Source: Candidatus Babeliales bacterium
GTDB lineage: Bacteria > Babelota > Babeliae > Babelales > JANWKD01
DNA length: 64,000 nt
Reading direction: 5' to 3'
Assembly: GCA_963722075.1 (NCBI GenBank)
Contig: CAVRJM010000001.1
Coordinates: forward strand, 1,184,001 to 1,248,000
This document shows positions 3,734-33,894 of this stretch, one piece after another (positions within the stretch are counted from its first letter, which is position 1; the number at the start of each line of letters is the position of its first letter). The translations under genes were made by a program, and so were the position numbers. The notes beneath the pieces are model-generated. The model did no database searches. It saw nothing but the letters and a program-made list of their open reading frames with translations, and was not told the origin of the DNA.

Positions 3734-4570
3734 TTATTTATAACATGTATAAGAACTATTTATTTGTGTAATAGTAAATGGGCTTGGAACATTGTTTATA
3801 GTAAATCGATACAATGCTCCATCAATAATTGTTGTCGGTGCAATAATAAAAAAATCAGCGAGCGTAAGCCAGCAAAATGTAAAAAATAAGAATGGCGATA
3901 ATGTTTTCGTTATAATTATTAAAATAATTAAAATTATAAATGGGAAGAAATTCGTCTCTTTAACTATATGATGACCAAATGTTGCGGTTAATCGTTGATA
4001 TGCTTTTACAAAAGCTTCTTGAGAGTTGGTTTTTTCCCTTATTATTATTAATGGCGTTAGTGTTACCAAAGGCTCCCATGTGATTAATAGTTTTGTTTTG
4101 ATATAATCGTGAGTAAATGAACCCACAATTTCTTCTGCCTCTATAATTCGTCGTAACGATCTAAAAAAATAACCACCATAATATGATTTATTAGTTCGAT
4201 ACATAAATCGAAATACCCATGATAGCCATTCAAAATAGAGTATATTTTTTAAAGAAGAAACAACCTCTTTAATAGATCTTAAAATGTTTTGTTGGTTTTC
4301 AATAATTGAAAGTTCGTATTCGGTTTGGATAAGAAAAATTAATCGTAATAAAATAAAAATGATGGAGGCGAAGATAAGAAGAAAAAAAAGTAGAAAAACA
4401 GCTAAAAAATAGTTGTTTATTATATATGGTCGACCATAATAAAAAACCGCAAAACTCAATAATAAAAAAGCAAAAGCTATAAGGCTTCGTATTAAGCTAA
4501 AAATAAGAAGATATGGATGTTTTAAAATCCACCAATAAGCTGACAAATAAATGTTCATATTATCCAGCAC
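3734..4570 (-). CDS. Hypothetical multi-pass membrane protein
   Basis: 278-aa ORF with several hydrophobic segments; overlaps the mlaD stop, so probably the last gene of the operon. Confidence 0.65.
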   Translation of the reverse strand: MLDNMNIYLSAYWWILKHPYLLIFSLIRSLIAFAFLLLSFAVFYYGRPYIINNYFLAVFLLFFLLIFASIIFILLRLIFLIQTEYELSIIENQQNILRSIKEVVSSLKNILYFEWLSWVFRFMYRTNKSYYGGYFFRSLRRIIEAEEIVGSFTHDYIKTKLLITWEPLVTLTPLIIIREKTNSQEAFVKAYQRLTATFGHHIVKETNFFPFIILIILIIITKTLSPFLFFTFCWLTLADFFIIAPTTIIDGALYRFTINNVPSPFTITQINSSYTCYK

Positions 4571-6245
4571 TGGAGCCTAAGAAGCCAATTTTAGAAGCAA
4601 TGAATTTCAAGTCGTCATCACTGAAGCGTAATCCCATACCAAAGAATCCGTTAGCGTTGTTGCGGCTTACAAAGTCATCAGCGCCAAAGGCCATATAAAT
4701 ATTACGCATTACAAAGACGCGGTTAATCCATTTAACATGTGGATTTTGATCGTTGATACGATCTCGACCACGAAGATCAAAGATTTCAGCAGACATTACC
4801 CAACGGAATTTATCAGTACCAAAAGGAATTTCTATATCAAAGCCCATACCCACGGTGCTTTCAAAAAGCCCAAATCGAACGGCAACGTTTCTGAAAATCT
4901 TACCAATTTGAGCACCGTATTTAAATTTATCAAAGGTACGTTCGATGGTTTCAATTCTACCAATCAGTTCTGGTAAAAATATTCTATTGGTTTCTCTGGT
5001 GTTTGGCGGCGTATCTTTAAAAGTAAAATCAAAAATATCACTTGCTAGAATCTGCCTATTTTGTTCGTCATACCAGTTTTTTATGAGTTCATGACGGCTT
5101 AAAGATCCTTTTTGTGAGCCAACTAATTGGAAAATATAAAAATGATCATCGGTTGGATGAATGCGAACATCTAGGTACCCTTTAGTATCTTGATACCGGT
5201 ATGTTTCAGCAGGACGGTACATATATTCACCATGGGAATCAATTACAATGCTTAAATTGTCGATTTTAGCAAAATAATTTTTCAAGCCACCAACAGCTTG
5301 TTTAAGATCAAAGTATGCCTCATCTTCATTAACCAATTTGCCAATGAGGCCTTTGCCTTCATCGATTTTTTCGGCAATAGAAGTAATATTTTTAAATCCA
5401 TTCTTAGCTTCAATTGCTGCGCTTTCTAAAGCGTTAGTGGTATGCTCAAGTTGATAGGTAATGGTATGGAAGTCTCGATCAAAGACTTCTGAAACTTTTT
5501 CAATACTATTTTTAAATGCTGGTAAGAAATCGGTCTCAAGCTTATTTGAAAGTCTGCTCAAATCCTGTCCTAGATGTGGGACGGTATCTTTCATATCACT
5601 GGCAATATCACGAATATCAGAAAGAATAGTATTGATGGTATCTTCGTTATGAGAAAGTGTGCGGTCAAGCATTTCGGTGAAATCCGCAATTCGTTCAGCG
5701 GCGCGATTTAAATGTTCCATTGTTAATCGAAGTTCATCACGGCCTCGATCACCGCCGATCACCTCACGCAGTGAAGAGGTCACATCATCAACATTGGTAG
5801 CAATTGATTGCACTTTATATAAAATTTCATCAACTGAAGCAGGTGCTCTTCCCGGTTTACCAAGTGCTTGCCCAGCGTGCAAATGTGGTAAATAAGGATC
5901 CCCTGGAATGACTTCTAGATACTTAGTTCCTAAAAGGCCTTCTTGACGTACAATAGCATGCGCATCACTGTGCAGAATATATTTTTTTAAGATCATAATA
6001 TTGGCTTTTGCCTGATACTCATGATCTTCTACAAGCTCTATAGATTCTACCCAGCCAATTTTTACTCCTGCTATTTTAACCTCAGCTTTTTTTTCTAATC
6101 CTGAAATATCGTTAAAATAGACAATTTGGTGCTTATAGTTGTGTCGGTCAAGCCTGAAGACTCCTAGCTGCATAGTCATATAAAAAAAGAGCGCTAGCGC
6201 GCCAATTACTACCAGACCAACATGAGTTTCTGTTTTAATCTGCAA
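4560..6245 (-). CDS. mlaD: Long MCE/MlaD-family protein (TM anchor, MCE domain, helical stalk, beta-rich C-terminus)
   Basis: N-terminal TM, then F.DISGL....VKIAGVKIG.V and EGLLGTKYLEVIPG MCE motifs; long amphipathic helices; alternating beta strands ending GMGLRF. Confidence 0.85.
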   Translation of the reverse strand: MQIKTETHVGLVVIGALALFFYMTMQLGVFRLDRHNYKHQIVYFNDISGLEKKAEVKIAGVKIGWVESIELVEDHEYQAKANIMILKKYILHSDAHAIVRQEGLLGTKYLEVIPGDPYLPHLHAGQALGKPGRAPASVDEILYKVQSIATNVDDVTSSLREVIGGDRGRDELRLTMEHLNRAAERIADFTEMLDRTLSHNEDTINTILSDIRDIASDMKDTVPHLGQDLSRLSNKLETDFLPAFKNSIEKVSEVFDRDFHTITYQLEHTTNALESAAIEAKNGFKNITSIAEKIDEGKGLIGKLVNEDEAYFDLKQAVGGLKNYFAKIDNLSIVIDSHGEYMYRPAETYRYQDTKGYLDVRIHPTDDHFYIFQLVGSQKGSLSRHELIKNWYDEQNRQILASDIFDFTFKDTPPNTRETNRIFLPELIGRIETIERTFDKFKYGAQIGKIFRNVAVRFGLFESTVGMGFDIEIPFGTDKFRWVMSAEIFDLRGRDRINDQNPHVKWINRVFVMRNIYMAFGADDFVSRNNANGFFGMGLRFSDDDLKFIASKIGFLGSSAG

Positions 6246-6263: not shown

Positions 6264-7298
6264 TCAAAGCCAATATAATTTTTTTATCATAAAAGTAACT
6301 GGATCTTGTGCTTCTACAATTGCAAAAACCTTTTGAGTTATATTTCCTACTGTTCCATACGAAAGCACACTAAATGTTTTTGCATGAAATTTGTTCGCTA
6401 ACAGCATAGCAAGATCAGTCGGTATCGCTTTAAATTCTTTAGCATATAATTTTTCTAAACTTTGTTCCCATATAGTTTTAATATCTCCTGAAACCGATTT
6501 TATATTTTTTAATACTTCTTCTGGTATAGTGGCTGCCCTTTTTAACCCATATAAGGTGCTTATCGAATATGATAATAACCATGGGTTCATTGTTGTTTCA
6601 TGTGACCAGATAGTAAAAATATCTGTTAAATACACCGGCTGCTGCTCCTTTTTTGTTGGTACAGAAGGTTCATAAAAAACTTTGTCTTTAAAAACCGATT
6701 GAAACTCTTCTATAGCAAGTAATTCAGTAATATCTTGTAACTTATACTGCCTTTGTTTTAAAAACTTTTCAAATGGTTCAAATAAATTTTTATCATTTAA
6801 AAATTTTTTAGCTGAAGCAAACAGGGCACTTAATGCCTTTTTGCTATCTTGTGTTGCAGCCCCTTCATTTAAAAATTTTTTTGCTGAAAAATCAAATAAT
6901 TGATTAATGTCAATTTTACCATCTTCGCTCATAATACAAAATTTTACAATTCCTTCCATGCCATCAATATCGCCCTTAAGCGAAAACTCCTGCCAAAGAT
7001 TAATGAATGGTAGGTTTTTTTTTAAAAATAATAACGCAGGGTCTTCAGTTTTTTTTTGTTCTGCCCCTTTTTCTTCTTTTTCTGGTGATGGCGGCAATGA
7101 TAATTGATCAATGGCAAGTTGTATGCCTCCCTTAGCAAGCATTTTTGCTTTTTCTCGATCAACCATAGCGCGATCAAAATAGAAATGTACTCGTGCGCGA
7201 TTAAAAAGCTGCGTTACCATAACTACCATGATGCTCAAAATGATAAGGGTTAGTACTAAAACAAATCCCGGTGTGCTTTGCGATACTTTTTTCTTCAT
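6264..7298 (-). CDS. gspK: Type II secretion minor pseudopilin GspK-like
   Basis: PG|FVLVLTL prepilin without Glu5, SEDGKIDIN motif, position after gspJ. Confidence 0.8.
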   Translation of the reverse strand: MKKKVSQSTPGFVLVLTLIILSIMVVMVTQLFNRARVHFYFDRAMVDREKAKMLAKGGIQLAIDQLSLPPSPEKEEKGAEQKKTEDPALLFLKKNLPFINLWQEFSLKGDIDGMEGIVKFCIMSEDGKIDINQLFDFSAKKFLNEGAATQDSKKALSALFASAKKFLNDKNLFEPFEKFLKQRQYKLQDITELLAIEEFQSVFKDKVFYEPSVPTKKEQQPVYLTDIFTIWSHETTMNPWLLSYSISTLYGLKRAATIPEEVLKNIKSVSGDIKTIWEQSLEKLYAKEFKAIPTDLAMLLANKFHAKTFSVLSYGTVGNITQKVFAIVEAQDPVTFMIKKLYWL

Positions 7299-7305
7299 AT
7301 AATCC

Positions 7306-8286
7306 TCAGGTTTTAGCTGCTGACGGCGTCGGTGTTGCTTGTGCTGCTGGTGTTGATGGCGTAGGGGCAGGTGTAGGCGCGGGCGCAGGAGTGGCTTTTT
7401 GCGCTTGAGCGGGTTGCATAAGTGCTAAAAATGTTGGAATTTCATAATTAAAAGTGAAGCTCTTTTCTTGTTGCTGTTGATTATTCCATAATTCTAGCGA
7501 TACGGTTACAAATTGTGGCGTTTTTGGTTGCTCTTTTGGCGCTTTTTGTGATTCAACATCCCAGCTATAAACGGTTTTGAATTCTGGCTTAGGCTTTTCT
7601 TCTTTGGATTCTTTTTTTTCTGGTGTTGCTATTGTGGGTGGTGTTGGTGCTTTTGCTGGTTGCTGCGCTTGCTCTTTTTGTACCGGAAAAGAATATTCTA
7701 TTTTCATGTTTTTAATATTGGTAGCCAGTTCATAAGCGCGAATGGGCTTTGCTGATTTTAAATCAAATGCTTTTAGCTCTAACTCATTTGATTCTTGCCG
7801 GAGCAAGGTATATGATTTTTGTTCCTTTCCTTGTTGCGGTACTTGTTGTGGTATTAGACGATAAACAACGCGTACAAAGCGCGGTTTTGCTTTGGCATTT
7901 TTTGCTTTTTCATAAATTTTTACCGGATTATTTGTTAAAAAAGTGAGCATTTCTAAACTTCCTTCAGCGTTATTAGTGCTATAGAAGATATGCTCAATGG
8001 GCTTAGGAGGAGGTGCTTGGGCGGCTTCTTTTGCGGCCGGTTGAGTAGTTGTTTTTGCTGGTGTTGCTGTTTTAGTTAGATCTGGTTGGATGGGAATTAA
8101 AGCACCATCCAGATCTTTTTCAAACTGATTTGAAATTATCGCTGCTCTAAAATCGGTTTGAATAAAATTATCCGCGATATCGACGATGCGATGTGTTATA
8201 AAAAAACTATTATATAAAACCGTTGCAATAATGCCCGAAAGAAGGATTCCTATAGAAAGTTCAATTAAGGTAAAACCTGGTTTCAT
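7306..8286 (-). CDS. gspJ: Type II secretion minor pseudopilin GspJ-like with Pro/Ala/Thr-rich inserts
   Basis: KPG|FTLIEL class III signal; position in operon. Confidence 0.75.
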   Translation of the reverse strand: MKPGFTLIELSIGILLSGIIATVLYNSFFITHRIVDIADNFIQTDFRAAIISNQFEKDLDGALIPIQPDLTKTATPAKTTTQPAAKEAAQAPPPKPIEHIFYSTNNAEGSLEMLTFLTNNPVKIYEKAKNAKAKPRFVRVVYRLIPQQVPQQGKEQKSYTLLRQESNELELKAFDLKSAKPIRAYELATNIKNMKIEYSFPVQKEQAQQPAKAPTPPTIATPEKKESKEEKPKPEFKTVYSWDVESQKAPKEQPKTPQFVTVSLELWNNQQQQEKSFTFNYEIPTFLALMQPAQAQKATPAPAPTPAPTPSTPAAQATPTPSAAKT

Positions 8287-8708
8287 TTCTTTTTTTGTTC
8301 CTCTTTTTGCGGAGCTTTATAAAGAAATGTTATCATTTTTTCTTGCAATTTAATAATGCCGTGTTGCCATTGGGCTTGTGCTTTTTCAATGATCGTATTG
8401 GAAAATTTTTTGAGCGACGAATGTTCATTAATCGGGCCCGTTGAAAAAGTAACCTCAGCAGCTTCAGTGGTAGCTTTTTTGGTAGGCTCTTCTTGTTGCT
8501 TTGCGCGCTGCAAGGAAGCGATTATAAAATTATTCCTCAGGGACAATACATGAGTTAGTTTTGAAGAGCTCGTAACAATTGAACCAAATGAGGTATTTTG
8601 TAAATTTAAAATTGCCGTCATAAGCATACCGAGCATAATTATGGCAATCATAACTTCAATAAGACTGAAGCCAGAGGCGGTTATATTATGGTTTTTGAAA
8701 TGTATCAT
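8283..8708 (-). CDS. gspI: Minor pseudopilin GspI-like
   Basis: SG|FSLIEVMIAI class III signal; position in operon. Confidence 0.7.
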   Translation of the reverse strand: MIHFKNHNITASGFSLIEVMIAIIMLGMLMTAILNLQNTSFGSIVTSSSKLTHVLSLRNNFIIASLQRAKQQEEPTKKATTEAAEVTFSTGPINEHSSLKKFSNTIIEKAQAQWQHGIIKLQEKMITFLYKAPQKEEQKKK

Positions 8709-9228
8709 ATTCTTTTAATTGAACCGTAAAAGGATTAAGCACTAGCCCTATATGTACCTGAGGAGTCCCACTGGTATCAATCATATTCATTACTACTTCT
8801 TGGCTCATTCCTTCGGGTACAATAAAGAACCAGAAGGTAAGTACTTCTCGATCGGGTCTATATTCATTGACTCCATCAAGAAAGAAGTCTTTTATTTCAA
8901 TAGATGGTGGTATTTCATAATAGGTTTTTCTAAATGTTTGTGGCACCGATTTAAAACCGGTGGTTACTACGGCTGGATCTTCAATTTCTAATTTTATTAT
9001 TCTTTTTTTTGTATCAAAGAAAACCCGGTGAACTTTTTGAGTAATTAACGAATTTTGCCAGCCAAGCGCGAGTAAATTATTCAATTCTGATAAAAATGCC
9101 TTACGTTGATACCCCGGAAGTCGTTGCTGCAAATTTGGAATAACAATGGTTGCCATTAGACCAATGATCATAATGACAACCATTAATTCAATTAAGGTAA
9201 ATCCTTGTTTTTTACATTTTCCAAACAT
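8686..9228 (-). CDS. gspH: Minor pseudopilin GspH-like
   Basis: KQG|FTLIELMVVI class III signal; position in operon. Confidence 0.75.
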   Translation of the reverse strand: MFGKCKKQGFTLIELMVVIMIIGLMATIVIPNLQQRLPGYQRKAFLSELNNLLALGWQNSLITQKVHRVFFDTKKRIIKLEIEDPAVVTTGFKSVPQTFRKTYYEIPPSIEIKDFFLDGVNEYRPDREVLTFWFFIVPEGMSQEVVMNMIDTSGTPQVHIGLVLNPFTVQLKEYDTFQKP

Positions 9229-9619
9229 CTAAACGGTCCTCAGCCGGTGCTGCTTCGCCTTCTGGGCCATAGGAGTAGAGTTCATAGGGATGGTCTGCTC
9301 CTGGGGTTGGTTTATATTGAAAATCATTGCCCCATGGATCTTTTGGAACTTCAGCTTTTTTTAAGTAAGGCGGTTTTGCATTAATTAAATCTTCAAGTGT
9401 TTTAGGATAGGAGCCTTTTTCTCCGTGATAAGCATCAATAGCATTTTCTAAGGCGCGTATGCTTGCTTTTGCTGCATTTTCTCGACCAGATATCACCCAG
9501 CGATAAGCATTAGGCACCACAACTGCTGCTAAGATCCCGATGATCATAATAACGACCATTATTTCTATTAACGAGAACCCCTCTTTGATTGTTCTATATG
9601 AGAACTGTTTGGTATTCAT
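9212..9619 (-). CDS. gspG: Major pseudopilin GspG
   Basis: KEG|FSLIEIMVV plus PKDPWGNDFQY and LYSYGPEG GspG motifs. Confidence 0.92.
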   Translation of the reverse strand: MNTKQFSYRTIKEGFSLIEIMVVIMIIGILAAVVVPNAYRWVISGRENAAKASIRALENAIDAYHGEKGSYPKTLEDLINAKPPYLKKAEVPKDPWGNDFQYKPTPGADHPYELYSYGPEGEAAPAEDRLDVWKM

Positions 9620-9636
9620 AACATTCCTTTCGTTTA

Positions 9637-10848
9637 TTATCCCATTTGAGTCATTTTCATCATTGGTTGAACGACTGACATAACTACAAAGCCAACCACC
9701 ACCGCCATTATTAACAGCATTATTGGCTCAAGTTTAGAAGCAAGGCTATCAGAAAACTCCGAAAGATCTGCTTCATAATTTTTTGCTACGGTTAATAACA
9801 TTAAGTCAAGCTGGCCACTCTCTTCTCCTGTTTTTAAAAGGTAGATTGCAATAGGAGGAAAAATTCCCGTTTGGCGTAAATATTCAGCAATCTTACCTTG
9901 TTTGATAATATTTTCACGCGCTTTATTAAGGGCATCTTTTAATATTCGATTATCAATAATTTTTACCACAATATCTAAAGCTTCAGAAAGATTAACGCCA
10001 CTTTCCATGAGCATACCCAGCGTGCGACTAAATTGAACAACGGCACCCATGCGGGTAAAAAATTTTATTATAGGAATTTTTAATTTAATATTATCAATGG
10101 TTTTAGCCCCTTGGGGGGTTTTACTCCAATAACGATACGCAATAACTAATATTATTATAAAAATGGCAATATATAAATAATATGTCCGTAAAAAATCTGA
10201 AGTAGCCATTAAACTACGTGTCGATAATGGCAGCTCAGCTCCTTGGGAGGCCAGCGTTTCAGTTAATGTTGGTATGACAAAGGTTAATAAGCCAACAATT
10301 ACAATAACAACAACAATTAATTGGATAATGGGATAGGTAAGCGCTCCCTTTACTTTCTTTTGTAATTCGGCACGCCGTTCCATATATTCAACTAAACGGT
10401 CTAAAATGACTTCAAGTTTACCGCTTGCTTCCCCGGCACGTACCAATTGAACGTAAATAGTGTCAAAGACTTTAGGGTATTTACTTAAGCCATCAGCAAA
10501 TGATTTACCCTCTTTAATACCATCTTTAATGGAAATAACTATTGATTTTAATCTCCCTTCAAATTGTTCAATCAACAATTCCAATGCCTGCAGTAATGGA
10601 ATGCCTGATTTAAGAAGCACTGATAGCTGTTTGGTAAATAAGATCTTATCTTTAAGTGAGACCTTTTTTTGCAATAATCTTTTATACCAGGGTTGTGCGC
10701 CTAATTGATCTTTGGCAATTTGAACTGAAATAGGGTACATCCCTTGCTTAGCTAATTGCTGCAAGACTGCTTCTTGGGAGGGGGCATCCAATGTACCTTT
10801 AGTTTTTTTGCCATCCTTGCCATATGCTTGGTAAGAATATAAAGCCAT
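9637..10848 (-). CDS. gspF: Type II secretion / type IV pilus inner-membrane platform protein GspF/PilC
   Basis: Two GspF domains (LVRAGEASGKL, TGEESGQLD), ALTYP, LEPIM. Confidence 0.93.
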   Translation of the reverse strand: MALYSYQAYGKDGKKTKGTLDAPSQEAVLQQLAKQGMYPISVQIAKDQLGAQPWYKRLLQKKVSLKDKILFTKQLSVLLKSGIPLLQALELLIEQFEGRLKSIVISIKDGIKEGKSFADGLSKYPKVFDTIYVQLVRAGEASGKLEVILDRLVEYMERRAELQKKVKGALTYPIIQLIVVVIVIVGLLTFVIPTLTETLASQGAELPLSTRSLMATSDFLRTYYLYIAIFIIILVIAYRYWSKTPQGAKTIDNIKLKIPIIKFFTRMGAVVQFSRTLGMLMESGVNLSEALDIVVKIIDNRILKDALNKARENIIKQGKIAEYLRQTGIFPPIAIYLLKTGEESGQLDLMLLTVAKNYEADLSEFSDSLASKLEPIMLLIMAVVVGFVVMSVVQPMMKMTQMG

Positions 10849-14380: not shown

Positions 14381-16981
14381 ATGAGTTCGTTAGAGATTCG
14401 TAAGCTTTTTTTCGATTTTTTTTATAGTAATGGTCATACCAAAGTTCCTAGTTCTTCCCTAATTCCCGTGCAAGATCCAACAATTTTATTTACTAATGCC
14501 GGCATGAATCAATTTAAAGATGTTTTTCTGGGTAAAGAGACACGCAGTTATGGGCGCGCAGTAAGTATTCAAAAATGTATGCGAGCAGGTGGTAAGCATA
14601 ATGATCTTGATAATGTAGGTTTTACTAAGCGCCATTTAACCTTTTTTGAAATGATGGGAAATTTCTCTTTTGGCGATTATTTTAAAAAAGAAGCTATTCA
14701 ATTTGCCTGGGATTTCTTAACCAAAGTTATTAAATTTAATGAAAAGCAACTTTACGCTTCTGTTTATAAAAAAGATGATGAAGCGTATGCCATTTGGCAT
14801 GAATTGATCGGGTTGCCTCAAGAACGCATTGTGCGCCTTGGTGAAGCTGATAATTTTTGGCAAATGGGTGATACCGGTCCGTGTGGACCATGTTCTGAAA
14901 TTTATGTTGATCGTGGTCTAGAACTTGGTTGCGGTGATCAAACATGCGCACCCGGATGCCACTGTGATCGATTTCTTGAAGTATGGAATTTAGTTTTCAT
15001 GCAGTTTGATCGACAACCGGATGGCTCTGACGTTCCGTTAAAACGAGTCGGCGTTGATACGGGTATGGGCTTGGAGCGGTTATGCGCAATAATCCAACAA
15101 AAAGATTCAGTTTTTCAAACCGATTTATTTACGCCAATTATTAATCATATTGAAGAATTGAGCGGCTTGGTATATGAAAAACAAGCTGATACGATAAAAG
15201 CAGCCTTTCATGTGCTGGCTGATCATATTCGCGCAGCTACCTTTTTAATTGCTGATGGTTGTGCTCCTTCCAATGAAGGTCGCGGCTATGTTTTGCGAAA
15301 AATAATTCGACGCGCAGCGCTTTTTTCTAATAAAATTACCGAATCAGTGATTTTCCCCCAGTTGGCAAATACCGTTGTTGAGCAAATGGCCGATATTTAT
15401 CCGGAATTAATTACGGCACGTTCAATTGTGATGGCGGTATTGCAATCAGAAATAGAAAAATTTGCTACTAATTTAGTACATGGCCAGCATATTTTGGCTA
15501 GCTTCATGAAAGAAGAAACAAAATCAAAAAAAATAGCAGGGCAACAGGTATTTAAATTATATGACACCTATGGATTTCCGGCAGAATTAACGGAATTGAT
15601 TGCTCAAGAGCATGGCTTTACGGTTGATAAAAAAGCATTCGAGGATCTTATGGAAAAACAACGTGAGCAATCGGGTAAAAAAACGCACTATGGATCAGCA
15701 ATAAAAATTCCTGATACCCTTAAAACAACATTTAGGGGATATGAACAATTCGAAACTACCTCTACCATTGTTGCATTGATTAGTAATAATGAGCTGGTGA
15801 AACAAGTCAAAAAAGGTCAAGAATGTATTATCATACCTAAAGAAACGCCCTTTTATGTGGAATGCGGTGGACAGGTTAGCGATCAAGCGGTGGTTGAAAT
15901 TGATCAACATGTTGTTCCAGTAACACAATTACAAAAAATTGACGGCGCAATAGGATTTACGATTATTACTCCAGCGGATCTTGTGGTGGGTGATTCTATT
16001 AAACAAGTGGTTAATAAACAAGCACGTTTGAACACCATGAAGAATCATACTGCTACGCATTTACTGCAGGCGGCACTTATAGAAGTGCTTGGCAAACAAG
16101 TTAAACAAGCAGGCTCTTTAGTGGTTCCTGATTACCTTCGCTTTGATTTTACCTATCATGAGAATTTAACGGCAGATCAAATTAAAAAAGTAGAAGATAT
16201 AGTAAATGCCAAAATACAAGAAAATATTCCCGTAAAAATTACTCATACCACTTATAAAGATGCCGTCAATAAAGGTGTTATTGCCTTTTTTGGTGATAAA
16301 TACAATCCGGAAGACGTGCGCGTGGTTGAAGTGCCCGGTTTTTCAGCAGAATTATGTGGTGGTACCCATGTACGAGCAACGGGAGATATTGGTTGTTTTA
16401 AAATTATCGAAGTTACTGCATTATCAGCAGGCCAGCGTCGTTTAGTTGCCCTTACGGGTCCTAAAGCAATAGAGCTGTATCAAGAATGTTTCGCAATTAC
16501 TAAAACGTTGTCGCAAGAATTTAAAGTACAACAAGGCGACATTCTTACTGCGGTTGAAAAACAGCGTGAACAATATAAAGAATTATTGCATACCTATAAA
16601 AAAATAAAACAGCACATGATGATGGCTCAGCTACCGCAATTATTACAGCAAATAGAGCTTATTAATGATATTCCATTTTTAGGGGTGCAGTGCAATGATT
16701 GCAGTAATACTGAATTAAAAGAACTGGTTCATAAGTTGCAACTACAAAAACCAGCACTGTATATAGCAGTAAGCGCTGATGAGCATGGTTCAGCTTCTTT
16801 TTACCTAGAAGGAGCAAAGCATTACGAAAATAAAATCGATGTTGCTTCATTGCGGCAATGGCTTGAAAAGCAAGGATTAAAATCGGGGGGCAAAGGGCTC
16901 ACACTGCAAGGTGGGGGCGCTTTAAAAAAATCTGCTGCCTCTTTTTTTGATGAATTAAAACAATACTTAAGAAAATTATAG
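14381..16981 (+). CDS. alaS: Alanine--tRNA ligase
   Basis: FTNAGMNQFK, HLTFFEMMGNFSFGDYFK, GPCGPCSE, NHTATHLL, ELCGGTH. Confidence 0.99.
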   Translation: MSSLEIRKLFFDFFYSNGHTKVPSSSLIPVQDPTILFTNAGMNQFKDVFLGKETRSYGRAVSIQKCMRAGGKHNDLDNVGFTKRHLTFFEMMGNFSFGDYFKKEAIQFAWDFLTKVIKFNEKQLYASVYKKDDEAYAIWHELIGLPQERIVRLGEADNFWQMGDTGPCGPCSEIYVDRGLELGCGDQTCAPGCHCDRFLEVWNLVFMQFDRQPDGSDVPLKRVGVDTGMGLERLCAIIQQKDSVFQTDLFTPIINHIEELSGLVYEKQADTIKAAFHVLADHIRAATFLIADGCAPSNEGRGYVLRKIIRRAALFSNKITESVIFPQLANTVVEQMADIYPELITARSIVMAVLQSEIEKFATNLVHGQHILASFMKEETKSKKIAGQQVFKLYDTYGFPAELTELIAQEHGFTVDKKAFEDLMEKQREQSGKKTHYGSAIKIPDTLKTTFRGYEQFETTSTIVALISNNELVKQVKKGQECIIIPKETPFYVECGGQVSDQAVVEIDQHVVPVTQLQKIDGAIGFTIITPADLVVGDSIKQVVNKQARLNTMKNHTATHLLQAALIEVLGKQVKQAGSLVVPDYLRFDFTYHENLTADQIKKVEDIVNAKIQENIPVKITHTTYKDAVNKGVIAFFGDKYNPEDVRVVEVPGFSAELCGGTHVRATGDIGCFKIIEVTALSAGQRRLVALTGPKAIELYQECFAITKTLSQEFKVQQGDILTAVEKQREQYKELLHTYKKIKQHMMMAQLPQLLQQIELINDIPFLGVQCNDCSNTELKELVHKLQLQKPALYIAVSADEHGSASFYLEGAKHYENKIDVASLRQWLEKQGLKSGGKGLTLQGGGALKKSAASFFDELKQYLRKL

Positions 16982-17119
16982 ATTTAAATAGACAAGTAAA
17001 AGAAAAAGACAAAGTTTTGCAAAATTCTAGAAAGAAGCGTTGAAATAGGTTTATTGAGTTTTTTAAAAGCGTTATTAAAATTTTAACTCAAAGCTTAATG
17101 TGATTGTATTTAGAAAGCC

Positions 17120-17335
17120 GTCGTTGCGAGCTTGTCGAAGCAATCCAGGTTAAAATAAATGATTTACATTTATCCAAGTGAATGAGCAGGAAATCAAGTT
17201 CAGTATTAATAGTTAATAATTTCTTTTTTATAAAATAATAAATTATTGTTAGCATCATTGGTTTAATAAATAATGATATTCAATTGCCGAAAAGCTATGA
17301 TAAAGCCTGGATTGCTTCGACAAGCTCGCAACGAC
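17120..17335. repeat. MITE/REP-like element: perfect 30-bp terminal inverted repeats around a 156-bp AT-rich spacer
   Basis: GTCGTTGCGAGCTTGTCGAAGCAATCCAGG at 17120-17149 and its exact reverse complement at 17306-17335. Confidence 0.85.
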
Positions 17336-17417
17336 ATACATTTGCATATTTGCTCCAGTTGAGCAAAATTTTGTAATATCTATGAATGCTAATATCTAAA
17401 AAAATTGAAAAAAGATT

Positions 17418-19036
17418 TTGATTATGCAAAAAAAACCAATAGGTCATATTCTTTCCGGTTCGCTTGCTGATGGATTTACCATGCGCATAAAAGGGGGAAC
17501 TGCGCTTGAAGAAATAAAAACAGGTAAATTTGTTTCTATTGTAAGTAATCAGTACACTTTTTTTTCATTGATTACCGATTTGAATTTGGCAGTTACCGAT
17601 CCTGAAATTTTATTATTCCCGCCTTCTGCACAAGAAACGTTATTACTTGAGCTGCTTAAAACAAAAGATATTTATGCAACAGCGCATTTAAAGCCTATGC
17701 TTATGGTAAATAATCGACAAGAAATTATGCCCGTTAAAACCATTCCGGGCCATTTTTGCCCCGTCTATGAAGCCACAAATGAAGATGTTGCTTTAATTTT
17801 TGGTGATGAAGCGGGATGCTAGTAAGCGTTATTTTTCTATTGGCAATCCAGTGGATATGAAAACGCCCGTATGCTTAGATTTAGAACGATTAACCGAACG
17901 CAGTAATGGTATATTTGGTAAAACGGGTACGGGTAAAACCTTTTTAACACGTTTGGTACTTGCCGGTCTTATTAAACAAGAAAAAGCGGTTACCTTAATT
18001 TTTGATATGCATAGTGAATATGGGTTACAGGCTCGAACTGAAAATAAATCAGCATCATTTGTGAAAGGACTTAAAACACTTTTTCCTACCAAAGTAGTTA
18101 TTTTTTCATTAGATCCAGCATCTACACGGCGCCGTGGTGCGGCTGCTGATATAGAATTAATAATTCCTTATCATGCAATTGGCATCGAAGACATTCTTTC
18201 ATTGCAAGAAGAATTAAATTTACATGCAACGGCGGTTGAAGCAGCTTATTTAATTGCGGCACGTTATAAGCAAGAATGGCTTCAAGACATTACTTACGCA
18301 AGGAGAGCGCCTTAAAGAATTTGCTCAAGAATTAGGAGCGCATCCTGAATCAATTGCCGCATTATATAGAAAATTAAAACGCATTGAGCAATTACCCTTT
18401 TTTAAGCCAACTGATTACAGCGCTCGTGCCGAATCTGCTATTGATCAAATGATGGAATATATTGATCGAGGTATCAATATTATTGTTGAATTTGGCAATT
18501 TCACCTCTACTTTTTGTTATTTATTAGTTGCTAATATTATCACCAGGCGCATTCATCATGAATTTGTTAATAAAACAGAGCAATTTTTAGGCTCTGGACG
18601 TATGCAACAGGAACCTAAAAAATTAATGATCTGTATTGAAGAAGCGCATAAATTTTTAAATCCTTCAGCAGCGCGGCAAACTATTTTTGGTACTATTGCA
18701 CGCGAAATGCGTAAATATTATGTTTCTTTATTAGTAGTGGATCAACGCCCATCGGGAATTGATCCAGAAATTATTTCTCAAATTGGTACTAAAATTGTTG
18801 CCCAGTTAAATGATGAAAAAGATATTCAAGCAGTGCTAACGGGGGTAACCAATTCTTGTCAATTGCGTACCATTATTGCTTCGCTCGATAGCAAAAAACA
18901 AATCTTACTTCTAGGGCATGCAATTGCTATGCCAGTGGTAGTGCAAACACGCGAATATAATGAAGATTTTTATAAAGCGGTGAGCGATCAAATAACATAC
19001 AAAAATATCGATGAAGTTATTAACGAACTTTTTTAA
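17418..19036 (+). pseudogene. herA: HerA/DUF87-family helicase-like ATPase split by two +1 frameshifts (pseudogene or sequencing errors)
   Basis: Three overlapping ORFs give an N-terminal barrel region, Walker A GKTGTGKT with FDMHSEYG, then Walker B IEEAH with REMRKY and DQRPS; frame switches near 17810 and 18283. Confidence 0.75.
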
Positions 19037-26406: not shown

Positions 26407-26810
26407 GTGAAAATTCTTGCATTAGATATAGGGGATCAATGGGTTGGATCTGCTTTATCAGATTCAATAGGTCTTCTTGCAAAACCATATAAAACAATCC
26501 AGGCAGCAACATTGGAGCAATTTTTAGTGGATTCTTTTAAAGCTGAACCGATTGATACCGTAGTGATTGGGTATCCTATTACCATGCGTGCAACAAAAAG
26601 TATGCAAACGGAGGCTATTATCAAAAAAAAGAAGAGCTGGAAAAAAAGTTTCCCCAGATTAATTGGGTATTATGGGATGAGCGATTAAGTAGTAAACGTG
26701 CACAATCATTGAAAAAAGCAATTACTAAAGAAGAAAAAATTAAAGCCCATTCATATGCAGCCGCTTTTATTTTGGAATCATATTTAGAATACCAAAAAAA
26801 TTTAATTTAA
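26407..26810 (+). CDS. ruvX: Holliday-junction-resolvase-like RuvX/YqgF, frameshifted at A8 run 26623-26630
   Basis: [11 protein letters not shown] and VVIGYP in the first frame; WDERLSS...[13 protein letters not shown] in the -1 frame to TAA at 26810. Confidence 0.85.
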
Positions 26811-30000: not shown

Positions 30001-30438
30001 TTATTTTTTCAGTGCAAGCCAAGTGAAAAGAGCAATTAAGCTAGCGCCGCCGACTCCCAACCCGGTAGCAATTTGCACTTTTTTATTTTTATAAAATGGC
30101 AGTATCTGTCCGCTGTTGCCAGGAGCAACATTATTCGTGTGTGATGTAGGATTTTTTAAATATTCTTGAGACTCGATTGATGGTGCTTCTTGATCTGCTG
30201 GTGGCGTTAACAGTTGTTGCAAGGTAGAATGATCAGCTGAATTGCTCATGGGAAATTGTGGCTGATTAATTTTTGGCGAAGGAAGTACCTCAGGTGCTGG
30301 TATATTAGTATCTACTTTGTGCCATTCAAGTGAGTCTGTTAATTTCTCGAGTTCTTTTTGTTTATCTTGCTCCATTGCAAACATAGACAATGGTAAAAAT
30401 AGAGCAAAACCGGTTAAAAATTTAGTAAGCATGTTCAT
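30001..30438 (-). CDS. Secreted tail-anchored protein with LIR-like motif
   Basis: AAGGAG RBS before MNMLTK; signal ending MFA|ME; DSLEWHKV; C-terminal TM followed by KK. Confidence 0.7.
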   Translation of the reverse strand: MNMLTKFLTGFALFLPLSMFAMEQDKQKELEKLTDSLEWHKVDTNIPAPEVLPSPKINQPQFPMSNSADHSTLQQLLTPPADQEAPSIESQEYLKNPTSHTNNVAPGNSGQILPFYKNKKVQIATGLGVGGASLIALFTWLALKK

Positions 30439-30602
30439 AATTAATAACTCCTTTATCAAATAATTATGATATTTTTTTCCAAGTATATGCACACAAAGCA
30501 ATAAAAGGCAAGACAAGATATTATTGCTGGCTTGGATAGAGAAATGTTATACTGATTAAAAAGGGCTATTTATTGCTATTTTTATTATAAAATGGAGAGG
30601 TT

Positions 30603-31271
30603 ATGAAGTCTATTAAAATTATGTTTTTTCTTAGTTCGGTTTTTCTAATAATATCATTGCAATCTAATGGTTTAAAAACTCCCGATGATTTCTTGTTTTT
30701 TGCCATTAAACAGTTTGGGCCAAGTTGGGATTCTTCTCCGGCTGTTAGAGAGCAATTAGAAAAAGGTGCCAACCCTAATGCTCAAAAGAAGGGCAAAACG
30801 GCGATTATGCAGGTAATTGAAGAAAAGTATGCCGGGAAAAACCGTATTAAACCATTGCTATTATTATTAGAACGTACAAATAATGTTGACTTTGTTGCTG
30901 ATAATGGGATGACTGCGCTTACCTTTGCGGCATCATTAGGTGACGATGATATGGTTAATGTATTATTAGAAAATGGTGCTAATCGTTATAAGAAAGATGC
31001 CTACGGCATGGATTATCTCGATTATATTGTGGAAAATGAGATCTATGAAAATAAACCAAATGAGCTAAAAGCAATTAGAATAGAACGAGAAAAAAATCTT
31101 TTAAATAAAGAATTATCAGAGTTTGAGGTTATTCGTTTGCGCCATGAAATTGAAGAAGAAGAATATGAGCGGCGCGAACAAAAAGAATGGGAAAAAGTTA
31201 GAGAGCTTGATAAAATTATACGAAAAGAATTAAGAGAACTTGAAGAAGGGTGGGAGTTGGTAGAGGAATAA
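30603..31271 (+). CDS. Secreted ankyrin-repeat protein with acidic LIR-like C-tail
   Basis: GANPN, GKTAIM, GMTALTFAA, LLENGAN ankyrin motifs; signal peptide. Confidence 0.85.
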   Translation: MKSIKIMFFLSSVFLIISLQSNGLKTPDDFLFFAIKQFGPSWDSSPAVREQLEKGANPNAQKKGKTAIMQVIEEKYAGKNRIKPLLLLLERTNNVDFVADNGMTALTFAASLGDDDMVNVLLENGANRYKKDAYGMDYLDYIVENEIYENKPNELKAIRIEREKNLLNKELSEFEVIRLRHEIEEEEYERREQKEWEKVRELDKIIRKELRELEEGWELVEE

Positions 31272-32629
31272 TGTATAAAAAAAGCTTATTTATCTTTCGT
31301 CGAGATTTGCGCTTAGAAGATAATATTGGCTTAAATGAAGCATTACGAAATTCAGCCCATGTTATTCCTTGTTTCATTTTTGATCTACGCCAATTATCAC
31401 CGGATAATGAATTCCGTTCATTACGTGCTATTACCTTTATGATAGAATCTTTGCTTGATTTACAAAAACAACTTAAACACGTCAATGGAAAGCTTTATTT
31501 TTTTTCGGGTATTGCTGAAGAAGTAGTAAAGAAAATAATAAAACAAGAGTCAATAGAAGCGGTATATTTTAATCGTGATTATACGCCATTCAGTATAAAG
31601 CGTGACGAAGCAATAAAAAAAGCGTGTATTCAAAATAATGTTGATTTTTTTATATGTGACGATGCGCTTTTAAATCCACCTGAATCAATAAAAACGCAAA
31701 AAAATGAACCGTTTTCAAAATTTACTCCGTATTATAAAAAAGCACTACTGTATTCCGTTGATAAACCTGCTTTTTTAGCAGGTGCTCATTTCTATCACAA
31801 ACCCATAAACGATACGCTTTCAGGTAATATAGACCCATTAATAGAAATTAAAAATGAGGTCATTAAGGGCGGCTCTAAAGAAGCAGCAAAGATTTTACGA
31901 TCATTAAAGAAATTTAAAAATTATGCGCATGAACATGATTTTCCTTCAATTGCTACCACCCATCTTTCAGCGCATAATAAATTTGGCACCGTTTCAATTA
32001 GGACTGTTTATCATGCAATAAAAAAGCAACTAGGAGCAGGGCATCCGCTGCTACGTCAATTATATTGGCGCGACTTTTTTACCTATGTTGCCTATCATTC
32101 TCCCTTTGTTTTTGGTGAGTCATTTTATAAAAAATATGAAAAGTTGTGGTGGAGTGATAATAAAAAATTATTTACATTGTGGTGCGAAGGCAAAACAGGA
32201 TTCCCTATTGTTGATGCAGGAATGAGAGAATTAAATCAAACAGGGTTTATGCATAATAGGGTGCGATTGCTAGTTGCATCATTCTTAGTAAAGGATTTGC
32301 ATATAAACTGGCTCTGGGGAGAACGCTATTTTGCCCAACATTTAATTGATTATGATCCAGCCGTAAATAATGGTAATTGGCAATGGTGTGCTTCTACTGG
32401 GTGTGATGCGCAGCCCTATTTTAGAATATTTAATCCCTGGTTACAGCAAAAAAAATTTGATGCTGAATGTGTATATATTAAAAAATGGATACCTGAACTC
32501 AAAGATGTAGAGAACGCTACTATTCATACCTGGTATGCGCAAAAGCAATCGATCAACAATTATCCATTACCAATTGTAGATCATGCTTATGAGAGCAAAA
32601 TAGCTAAAAAACTCTTTAAAAACCTCTAA
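31271..32629 (+). CDS. phrB: Deoxyribodipyrimidine photolyase (class I CPD)
   Basis: FRRDLRLEDN, LYWRDF, GKTGFPIVDAGMREL, GFMHNRVR, DYDPAVNNGNWQW, FRIFNP; TAATG overlap start. Confidence 0.95.
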   Translation: MYKKSLFIFRRDLRLEDNIGLNEALRNSAHVIPCFIFDLRQLSPDNEFRSLRAITFMIESLLDLQKQLKHVNGKLYFFSGIAEEVVKKIIKQESIEAVYFNRDYTPFSIKRDEAIKKACIQNNVDFFICDDALLNPPESIKTQKNEPFSKFTPYYKKALLYSVDKPAFLAGAHFYHKPINDTLSGNIDPLIEIKNEVIKGGSKEAAKILRSLKKFKNYAHEHDFPSIATTHLSAHNKFGTVSIRTVYHAIKKQLGAGHPLLRQLYWRDFFTYVAYHSPFVFGESFYKKYEKLWWSDNKKLFTLWCEGKTGFPIVDAGMRELNQTGFMHNRVRLLVASFLVKDLHINWLWGERYFAQHLIDYDPAVNNGNWQWCASTGCDAQPYFRIFNPWLQQKKFDAECVYIKKWIPELKDVENATIHTWYAQKQSINNYPLPIVDHAYESKIAKKLFKNL

Positions 32630-32693: not shown

Positions 32694-33311
32694 ATGAATA
32701 AAAAATCACCTATTATAACCTTTCTTTTATCAACTGTTTTATTTTCTTTAGAAGCAAATCATAATATTGAAAAATATATTCCAAAGATTGCTGAGCAAAT
32801 TAACGCTCTAGAGTTTTATCACCCAAAAGTTCAAGGATGGACGCCTTTTGAGCAGATAAGTTTATTTTTACACCAAGCAGGTTTTAAACAAGAAAAACCA
32901 AACCCAAATATTCAAATTGATGGAAAAACTCTTTTGATGTATTTCATGGAAAAAGTAACAGGAAATCGTATCGAAGCGCTTAAACGTTTATTAAAAGTTT
33001 TAAATAATTATATGATGGATATAAATGTAATTGCTGATAATGGGATGACAGCACTTACATTTGCTGCCTCAAGAAATGATAATGAAATGGTAGAAGGATT
33101 AATCACGTATGGCAAAGCTGATGTTAATCAGCCTGATGCATTTGGCAAAACATATAGGGATTATTTAATAGAAAATGAAATAAAAAGAAAAGAAAAAGTG
33201 GAAGAGGAATTGCGAAGGGAATTTGAGTTTATTCGTACCAAAGAAGAATTGGAAGAAGAGCGGGAAAAAGAATTAGAAAAAGAACTTGAAGAATGGGAAA
33301 TAATTGGTTAA
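32694..33311 (+). CDS. Secreted ankyrin-repeat protein with acidic LIR-like C-tail (paralog of 30603)
   Basis: ADNGMTALTFAAS shared with the 30603 ORF; signal peptide. Confidence 0.85.
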   Translation: MNKKSPIITFLLSTVLFSLEANHNIEKYIPKIAEQINALEFYHPKVQGWTPFEQISLFLHQAGFKQEKPNPNIQIDGKTLLMYFMEKVTGNRIEALKRLLKVLNNYMMDINVIADNGMTALTFAASRNDNEMVEGLITYGKADVNQPDAFGKTYRDYLIENEIKRKEKVEEELRREFEFIRTKEELEEEREKELEKELEEWEIIG

Positions 33312-33336
33312 CCAATTACTATAAATGGAGTGTTGT

Positions 33337-33894
33337 ATGAAAATTAATAAATTATTTTTATTGGTATCGATGAGTTTTATTGCAAATTTATTTTGTTCAT
33401 ATTCTTTACGCCAAGATATTCCAAACAAAGCATTATTTGATGCTATTGAAAATGCGAATGTTAACGCGGTGAGAGTATTGTTAGCAGAAAAAAGAATTAA
33501 TCCAAATATACCATATCAAGGGAAATCTGCGCTTATTAAAGCAATTACGTTATCAGATCCTAATGCAAAAGCAATTGTGGAATTGCTCCTAAAGCATGAT
33601 GCTAATCCCGATTACATTGATGATTCGGGAATGACTCCTTTAGTAGCTGCTAAATATGTTAATAAGCCGGATATTGTTTTGCTGCTATTGCAATATGGGG
33701 CTCGGGTAACCACTGATAAAACATTACGTGAAGAGAAAAAGCCTAAAATTACCTGTCCGTATGAAAAAGGCCTTAAGAAATTAGAAAAAGAATTTTATAT
33801 GGTGCCTGAAGAGCCTAAAAAAGAAGAAGAGGAATGGACGGTAATCGAAAGCCCTAAATCTGCATGGGAGACATTAAAGCGCTGGCTCTATTAA
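33337..33894 (+). CDS. Secreted ankyrin-repeat protein with acidic LIR-like C-tail
   Basis: LFDAIEN, GKSALIKA, LLLKHDANPD, GMTPLVAA, LLLQYGA; signal peptide. Confidence 0.85.
   Translation: MKINKLFLLVSMSFIANLFCSYSLRQDIPNKALFDAIENANVNAVRVLLAEKRINPNIPYQGKSALIKAITLSDPNAKAIVELLLKHDANPDYIDDSGMTPLVAAKYVNKPDIVLLLLQYGARVTTDKTLREEKKPKITCPYEKGLKKLEKEFYMVPEEPKKEEEEWTVIESPKSAWETLKRWLY

Follow-up and report, generated by a model that had tools for sequence, protein, structure and literature searches.

The locus described here raises the question of whether a bacterium can make a small exported protein that works in its host like a selective-autophagy receptor. The window, by which we mean the whole stretch of DNA analysed, comprises 64,000 nucleotides from a Candidatus Babeliales bacterium (assembly GCA_963722075.1, contig CAVRJM010000001.1, positions 1,184,001 to 1,248,000); the source assembly is 1.47 Mb long, has 35% GC and is 99% complete. 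A preliminary description of this DNA likened one of its proteins, P0001, to a eukaryotic mitophagy/ER-phagy receptor and proposed that it tethers ATG8 to an organelle or vacuole. The features of P0001 and its gene are as follows.

30001..30438, minus strand: open reading frame of P0001 (145 aa), with signal peptide, W-motif, disordered linker, C-terminal transmembrane segment (TM) and KK
30448..30453, minus strand: ribosome-binding site AAGGAG, 9 nt before the ATG at 30438
30376..30438, minus strand: predicted Sec signal peptide, residues 1-21 (heuristic), with cleavage before Met-Glu
30313..30342, minus strand: LTDSLEWHKV, L33-V42, with the candidate LIR/AIM core W39-H-K-V42 at 30313-30324
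30100..30312, minus strand: Pro/Ser/Asn/Gln-rich linker, predicted to be disordered
30004..30099, minus strand: tail-anchor-like segment, consisting of PFYKNKK, the Gly-rich TM V121-L143 and KK

P0001 is a coding gene. Codon usage in its frame scores 0.155, compared with a median of 0.122 in genes of the signal|M type (n=89), and the other five frames at 30001-30438 all have negative scores. A longer version starting from the TTG at 30516 is unlikely because AAGGAG lies 9 nt before the ATG and codon usage in the P0001 frame is gene-like. The only change in the gene among DNA contigs from sequencing runs is E23K, and a promoter scan (10 matches versus 5.9 ± 2.5) was uninformative. Translation of 30001-30438 on the minus strand gives MNMLTKFLTGFALFLPLSMFA|MEQ...LTDSLEWHKV...PFYKNKKVQIATGLGVGGASLIALFTWLALKK*, which bears out the architecture first claimed for it: a signal peptide followed by Met-Glu, DSLE-WHKV, a Pro/Gln/Ser-rich linker, a Gly-rich C-terminal TM and a final KK. 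Signal-peptide cleavage sites here and below were predicted with our own heuristic and not with SignalP. Linker residues 44-113 include 11 P, 8 S, 7 N and 7 Q among 70, and have pLDDT values of about 41-50 in an AlphaFold2 model that is weak as a whole (52.6); in this model W39 ends a low-confidence helix that leads into the disordered linker, and does not lie in an extended stretch. P0001 matches no Pfam family at E<=0.1 and no NCBIfam family, and the ESM Atlas holds no usable match for it.

The LIR core [W/F/Y]-x-x-[L/I/V] occurs as W39-H-K-V42 in P0001 and as W-E-I-V in P0003, its likely orthologue in a genome of the same genus (G001), with acidic, Ser or Thr residues before the Trp in both (D-S-L-E and S-T-D, respectively). 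Lys or Arg within the core usually inhibits binding, and cores with G, P, K or R should be filtered out, according to excerpts of PMC7615515. P0001 has a Lys at +2; P0003 and all nine W motifs of the ankyrin proteins described below are free of such residues. Comparable motifs are frequent in the source genome (G000): W-x-x-[LIV] lies within the first 40 mature residues in 59 of its 703 signal-peptide proteins, and [DE]W-x-x-[LIV] in 13, while shuffling the first 40 mature residues of P0001 produces [DE]W..[LIV] in 4% of cases. Genome-wide, counts of acidic W-x-x-[LIV] agree with shuffles in each protein class (63 versus 58.1 from shuffles in signal-peptide proteins without a TM); xLIR matches in signal-peptide proteins number 357 versus 250, with an excess that comes from the F/Y type (W-type 23 versus 24.9). 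Within the terminal 40 aa, literature-type LIR patterns gave 6 matches versus 3.6 expected (P 0.15) across G000, G001 and part of G003; a narrower terminal pattern (6 versus 1.0, P 0.0007) was discarded as a test because it had been defined after the examples were seen. LIR-like motifs are not enriched genome-wide in secreted-type proteins, and the WHKV motif of P0001 on its own is at no more than chance level. Scored with a matrix derived from the ankyrin tails, the P0001 site ranks 219 of 929 W..[LIV] sites and does not resemble those tails. The pattern T.S.[DE]W..[IVM] has 26 matches in five genomes (G000-G004); P0001 and P0003 are the only proteins in which it lies near the mature N-terminus.

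P0003 was found by following the synteny of a neighbouring gene.

31274..32629, plus strand: DNA photolyase, the synteny anchor common to the window and G001

This 160-aa protein (G001:C1:806973-807473) is laid out as signal|MEEG...LTASTDWEIV...Pro/Gln linker...PWYQN-TM-KK and occupies the same place and orientation as P0001, divergent from the photolyase block and with a tmRNA-like segment beyond. The two proteins are reciprocal best global matches, with a score of 34 versus 22.5 (n=1093) and 16.5 (n=856) for the next best, in a comparison of proteins of 60-260 aa. The G001 side of it rests on 1713 called genes, covers about 1.59 of the genome's 1.62 Mb and misses genes at the edges of the stretches. 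Their global match reaches z 4.7 against 500 shuffles; in a noisy ranking by 15-shuffle z the pair falls outside the top 8 in one direction, the BLASTP E value of 0.35 is not significant, and identity is 25-32%. They share L-T-x-S-x-[DE]-W-x-x-V, with W and V in register, and the tail P[FW]Y.N...TM...KK. Residues 33-50 form the best-conserved 18-residue window (9/18 identical versus 10/63 in the linker, Fisher P 0.009), which was picked post hoc, and the best ungapped 10-mer lies outside the W block and is not significant, being equalled by 24 of 150 shuffles. In other signal-peptide orthologue pairs W-x-x-[LIV] is retained anyway at 9/45 sites where identity is below 30% and at 24/69 where it is 30-50%. 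Lack of conservation in orthologues had been named at the outset as grounds for dismissing the motif; the one likely orthologue keeps both W and V (STD-WEIV), which is weak evidence and would raise the odds of an LIR only modestly because background retention in comparable orthologue pairs is 20-35%. The GxxxG claimed for the TM exists in P0001 (G126-x-x-x-G130) and is missing from P0003.

A search of 5.8 billion sequences returned only P0002 (99%, E23K) and P0003 as homologues of P0001; in BLAST and HMM searches the near-identical copy was the sole homologue. Searched with a profile of the P0001/P0003 pair, neither the 261 phylum genomes nor the protein database yielded a third member, none of 94 candidates from a metagenome scan with the P0001 alignment was confirmed, and the 815 kb read of G003 (61% of 1,337 kb) and the 40 kb read of G004 contain no orthologue. 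Weak genome matches at E 0.002-0.07 (among them L002 and L003, which were read, and L021 and L022, which were checked for the motif) were not accepted as homologues. The DNA pattern P[FW]Y.N...KK-stop matches in 61 of the 261 genomes, with a similar number for the reversed control. ATG8 itself (PF02991) has no match over the cut-off in the 261 phylum genomes.

The C-terminal end of P0001 fits the screen used for mitochondrial tail-anchored Legionella effectors, which asks for a single C-terminal TM and a positive C-tail (PMC12313075, in excerpt): its TM V121-L143 lies within 30 residues of the C-terminus, with KNKK before and KK after. This does not point to mitophagy because the screen is also passed by a whole class, 45 proteins from two genomes with a signal peptide, one C-terminal uncharged segment and a basic tail; an anchor of this kind is not specific to mitophagy. 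Members make up 19 of 703 signal-peptide proteins versus 3 of 682 proteins without a signal in G000, and 26 of 693 versus 5 of 831 in G001. W-x-x-[LIV] occurs in the first 20 mature residues of only 5 of the 45, and P[FW]Y/WY (P[FW]Y[KQ]-type) and basic residues often precede the TM, including in several unrelated members. Their TMs are only marginally hydrophobic (median 2.8) and rich in Gly, with 2.9 per helix versus 1.4, in a comparison biased by differing selection thresholds. Two G001 proteins with a signal peptide and a C-terminal hydrophobic segment, one of which passes the class filter, carry a Pfam DnaJ domain (E 6e-18 and 5e-10). J-domains require ATP-dependent cytosolic Hsp70, which the periplasm does not have, so that proteins of this layout plausibly leave the bacterium and reach a cytosol outside it. 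The class itself could represent tail-anchored effectors or an undescribed sorting signal.

A mature N-terminus of the signal|ME type is a genome-wide habit. Signal peptides are predicted by the heuristic in 748 of 1487 called proteins; Met occurs at positions 16-28 in 334 of these 748, compared with 122 at control positions 36-48, and is most commonly followed by Glu (116 cases). The resulting N-termini are mostly Met-Glu, Met-Gln or Met-Asn, which we take to resemble substrates of NatB N-acetylation, and the Met bias after the cleavage site, noted in G000 and G001, may be an export signal. The window also holds part of the export machinery.

6264-10848, minus strand: type II secretion cluster, with GspF, GspG and three more N-methylation pseudopilins (Pfam) spanning 7306-10848; the last gene has no Pfam match
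4560-6245: MlaD gene, adjoining the type II secretion cluster

The genome has two secretins, and the 99%-complete assembly yielded neither the T3SS export gate FHIPEP (PF00771) nor VirB10 (PF03743); Sec/type II secretion is the only route found for exporting a TM protein. Dependentiae are described in excerpts of PMC4378268 and PMC6561590 as having a T2SS only and many secreted ankyrins, and as sending many host-directed proteins through Sec/T2SS. The same excerpts place one isolate in a niche wrapped by a host mitochondrion and another in a single vacuole.

Three ankyrin genes beside P0001 carry acidic W motifs at the other end of the protein.

30603..31271, plus strand: signal peptide, ankyrin, predicted ~70-aa helix and C-terminal EEG-WELV-EE (motif 31251-31262); divergent from P0001
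32694..33311, plus strand: signal peptide, ankyrin, charged helical region and C-terminal LEE-WEII-G (motif 33294-33305)
33325..33894, plus strand: signal peptide, ankyrin, EEEE-WTVI (motif 33835-33846) and terminal amphipathic-looking segment

Their homologues also form trios in G003 and G004 (L015:1456-3119; L016:911-2605), and were detected at E<=1e-22 in only 3 of 261 genomes (G000, G003 and G004) among at most 12 scored candidates per genome; members are 20-40% identical. Close to the C-terminus, all nine carry W-x-x-[ILV] whose core is free of K, R, P, G and H. A strict acidic W-x-x-[ILV] rule is matched by eight of these nine related, and not independent, proteins versus 0.3 expected from shuffles of their own tails. 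Among control proteins it is matched by 1 of the 93 further ankyrin-like proteins of these genomes and by none of 29 unrelated ankyrins from metagenomes. The +1 position of the core varies (E, T, Y, V) and +3 is always I, L or V (9/9), a pattern that reads as the substitution pattern of an LIR. An upstream [DE]-F-x-x-[IV] lies within the last 50 residues in five of the nine. AlphaFold2 models the first neighbour as ankyrin repeats followed by a 70-residue helix that ends at the motif, so the motif may be helical. Judged from their sequences, the ankyrin-trio proteins appear to be better LIR candidates than P0001 and are the stronger result of this analysis.

Other secreted-type proteins carry W motifs. 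A G001 protein (G001:C1:266659-267270, minus strand; L036:6659-7270) consists of a signal peptide, DnaJ and a charged region that ends in EEWEII...EEWEVA...DDEEWEFI; two of these three acidic W motifs are W-x-x-I, and the protein looks like a chaperone-to-ATG8 adaptor. An orthologue pair (G000:C1:294617-295441, minus strand, and G001:C2:161569-162291, plus strand) has signal|ME, an acidic stretch and W-x-x-[IL] (DSERD-WFFI and ESIYSK-WILL), which makes it another candidate for an N-terminal LIR. It is conceivable, if doubtful, that this Babeliales family exports a whole ATG8-binding toolkit into its protist host through Sec/T2SS and not by an injection needle, with P0001, three ankyrin-helix-LIR adaptors and the tandem-LIR J-domain protein of the sister species as its parts. 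If true, bacteria would be imitating the selective-autophagy receptors of protists in both their membrane-bound and their soluble form.

For P0001 itself, our best reading is that of an exported, tail-inserted adaptor whose W-x-x-V would bind ATG8 of the protist host and tether or sequester it at the vacuole or mitochondrial surface, to which we give a probability of roughly one in three. A specifically mitophagy-inducing role seems improbable, and the label of mitophagy/ER-phagy receptor mimic expresses an analogy, not a result. Starting from the gene, anatomy and syntenic orthologue described above, the protein would be exported by Sec, with cleavage predicted heuristically before Met-Glu, and would then leave the bacterium by type II secretion or in outer-membrane vesicles, its marginally hydrophobic TM escaping stop-transfer. 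By analogy with known tail anchors, the tail would insert post-translationally into the bacterium-containing vacuole or the mitochondrial outer membrane, where the linker would keep the W-motif at a distance from the membrane, so that it could capture ATG8-coated membrane or sequester ATG8. The niche could thereby become wrapped in autophagic membrane or be shielded from xenophagy. This reading is favoured because the orthologue keeps the motif, J-domain proteins occur in the class, the ankyrin family has acidic W tails and a T2SS is present; it is weakened by the Lys in the core, the chance-level motif counts, the lack of an injection system among the genes found and the missing GxxxG of P0003.

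A Sec signal combined with a C-terminal TM normally yields an inner-membrane protein, and with a final KK this is the default topology. P0001 could accordingly stay in the bacterium as a single-pass protein of the inner membrane whose periplasmic part is disordered, with a W-x-x-V that is a chance match inherited by the orthologue, which is a serious alternative even if we consider it somewhat unlikely. The summed Hessa-scale value of its TM (1.44, on a position-independent scale) is at the level of the polytopic-helix median (1.39), no T3SS gate or VirB10 was found, motif counts are at shuffle level and background retention is 20-35%. A periplasm would, however, be an odd place for the J-domain proteins of the class; TMs of the class are rich in Gly and only marginally hydrophobic, in the biased comparison given above, mature N-termini favour Met-Glu, and Dependentiae are reported in excerpts to secrete many host-directed proteins by Sec/T2SS (PMC4378268, PMC6561590). 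If P0001 is exported and anchored in a host membrane, its W-x-x-V might still be non-functional or decayed, and the protein might serve at the niche membrane as a spacer, a tether or a coat. Such a role is rather unlikely in our estimate: the anchor evidently needs no motif, which only 5 of 45 class members have, and the WHKV core is disfavoured, but the W block is the best-conserved part of the protein (in the post hoc window, Fisher P 0.009), and apart from it only the anchor is conserved in P0001.

The Trp motif of an exported, tail-anchored P0001 might instead bind kinesin light chain or another adaptor with an aromatic pocket and so move the vacuole or organelle. W-acidic motifs have a Trp flanked by Asp/Glu, often with Leu or Met at -2 (PMC5450233, in excerpt), and L-E-W in P0001 and D-W-E in P0003 each fit this pattern in part; another secreted-type protein of the source genome has acidic W motifs without a hydrophobic residue at +3 (EEEG-WISA, EEEV-WATS). 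Neither P0001 (L-E-W-H) nor P0003 (T-D-W-E) matches the whole W-acidic pattern, however, both keep Val at +3, and the ankyrin family varies at +1 and holds I/L/V at +3 in all nine members, which leaves kinesin binding improbable. The protein with EEEG-WISA and EEEV-WATS (G000:C1:277509-278291, minus strand) also has an acidic tail and a stretch that reads as NUDIX-like. Least probable of all, and very unlikely, is that the PFY-TM-KK tail is a GlyGly-CTERM-like sorting signal that is cleaved for surface display via type II secretion. The tripartite layout of motif, TM and basic residues resembles that of GlyGly-CTERM (PMC6219818, in excerpt), a T2SS is present, and several unrelated members of the class carry a P[FW]Y[KQ]-type motif ahead of the TM; on the other side, neither a rhomboid (PF01694), as expected beside rhombosortase substrates, nor an exosortase (PF09721) was found in the 99%-complete genome, no NCBIfam CTERM model matches P0001, and its glycines lie within the TM and not before it.

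Several known systems resemble the adaptor that we favour for P0001. BNIP3 and BNIP3L (NIX) likewise have an N-terminal W-type LIR-like motif (SWVEL; PMC7615515, in excerpt), a disordered linker and a single C-terminal TM, and are described as tail-anchored in excerpts of PMC10055395 and PMC10883272. P0001 differs in having no sequence homology to them (no Pfam match), a bacterial Sec signal and a core of WHKV versus WVEL; P0003 similarly matches no Pfam family at E<=0.01. The TM of BNIP3 and NIX contains a GxxxG dimer motif, which is not kept in P0003. With this motif not conserved and no homology, P0001 is not a member of the BNIP3/NIX family. ATG8 is also bound by proteins that pathogens secrete, among them PexRD54 of Phytophthora, RavZ of Legionella and UIS3 of Plasmodium. 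P0001 lacks a folded domain, whereas PexRD54 and RavZ contain folded domains of the effector or protease type, and neither of these two is tail-anchored. The WEIV that serves PexRD54 as its functional AIM core is identical to the core of P0003 (PMC9907853, in excerpt), and UIS3 is a TM protein of the vacuole that sequesters LC3 (PMC8634866, in excerpt). Legionella LpPIP (Lpg1625) is a mitochondrial tail-anchored effector whose short motif recruits a host protein (PMC12313075, in excerpt); it is similar to P0001 in its small size (about 130 aa), basic-flanked C-terminal TM and short linear motif, but it is a T4SS substrate without a Sec signal and uses an RVxF motif for PP1, whereas VirB10 was not found here and P0001 has no RVxF. 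The ASFV protein pE199L, a viral mitophagy receptor with a mitochondrial C-terminal anchor and LIRs (PMC13285548, in excerpt), is a pathogen protein with a C-terminal hydrophobic anchor and an N-terminal W-x-x-I among its LIRs; it differs in having three LIRs and, being viral and made in the host cytosol, faces no export problem; homology to P0001 would not be expected.

Pathogen mimicry of LIRs is already known, but a bacterial tail-anchored form exported by Sec/T2SS would be new. Titles and abstract openings of the Dependentiae papers searched gave no link to ATG8 or LIRs, and at the same depth no precedent was found for a Sec/T2SS-exported bacterial tail-anchored LIR protein or for LIR-tailed Dependentiae ankyrins. 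If P0001 is a tail-anchored ATG8 adaptor exported without a T3SS or T4SS, it would represent a new route to the subversion of autophagy and would offer a direct test of how Dependentiae place membrane proteins in the host. Nine natural peptides that are cheap to try against protist ATG8 are available in the ankyrin tails.

Three further observations concern the sequence data. Genes in the window at 16981-19036, 26407-26688 and 63115-64025 appear split relative to G001, with two open reading frames corresponding to one G001 gene and a short RuvX-like open reading frame; frameshifts or assembly errors are possible causes. Ten copies of a repeated element in G002, picked up by a pattern search (L097, L101, L105, L108, L110, L112, L114 and L116-L118), read '...AVILTQSCDWDPVSGTPENDL...' and sometimes lie in frame within genes, and the element is possibly a mobile palindromic insert. 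In IMG/VR, 76 viral-collection contigs (L168-L243), many of them labelled GVMAG, contain the C-terminal motif of ATG8; many encode a full ATG8, which in some extends past the C-terminal Gly.
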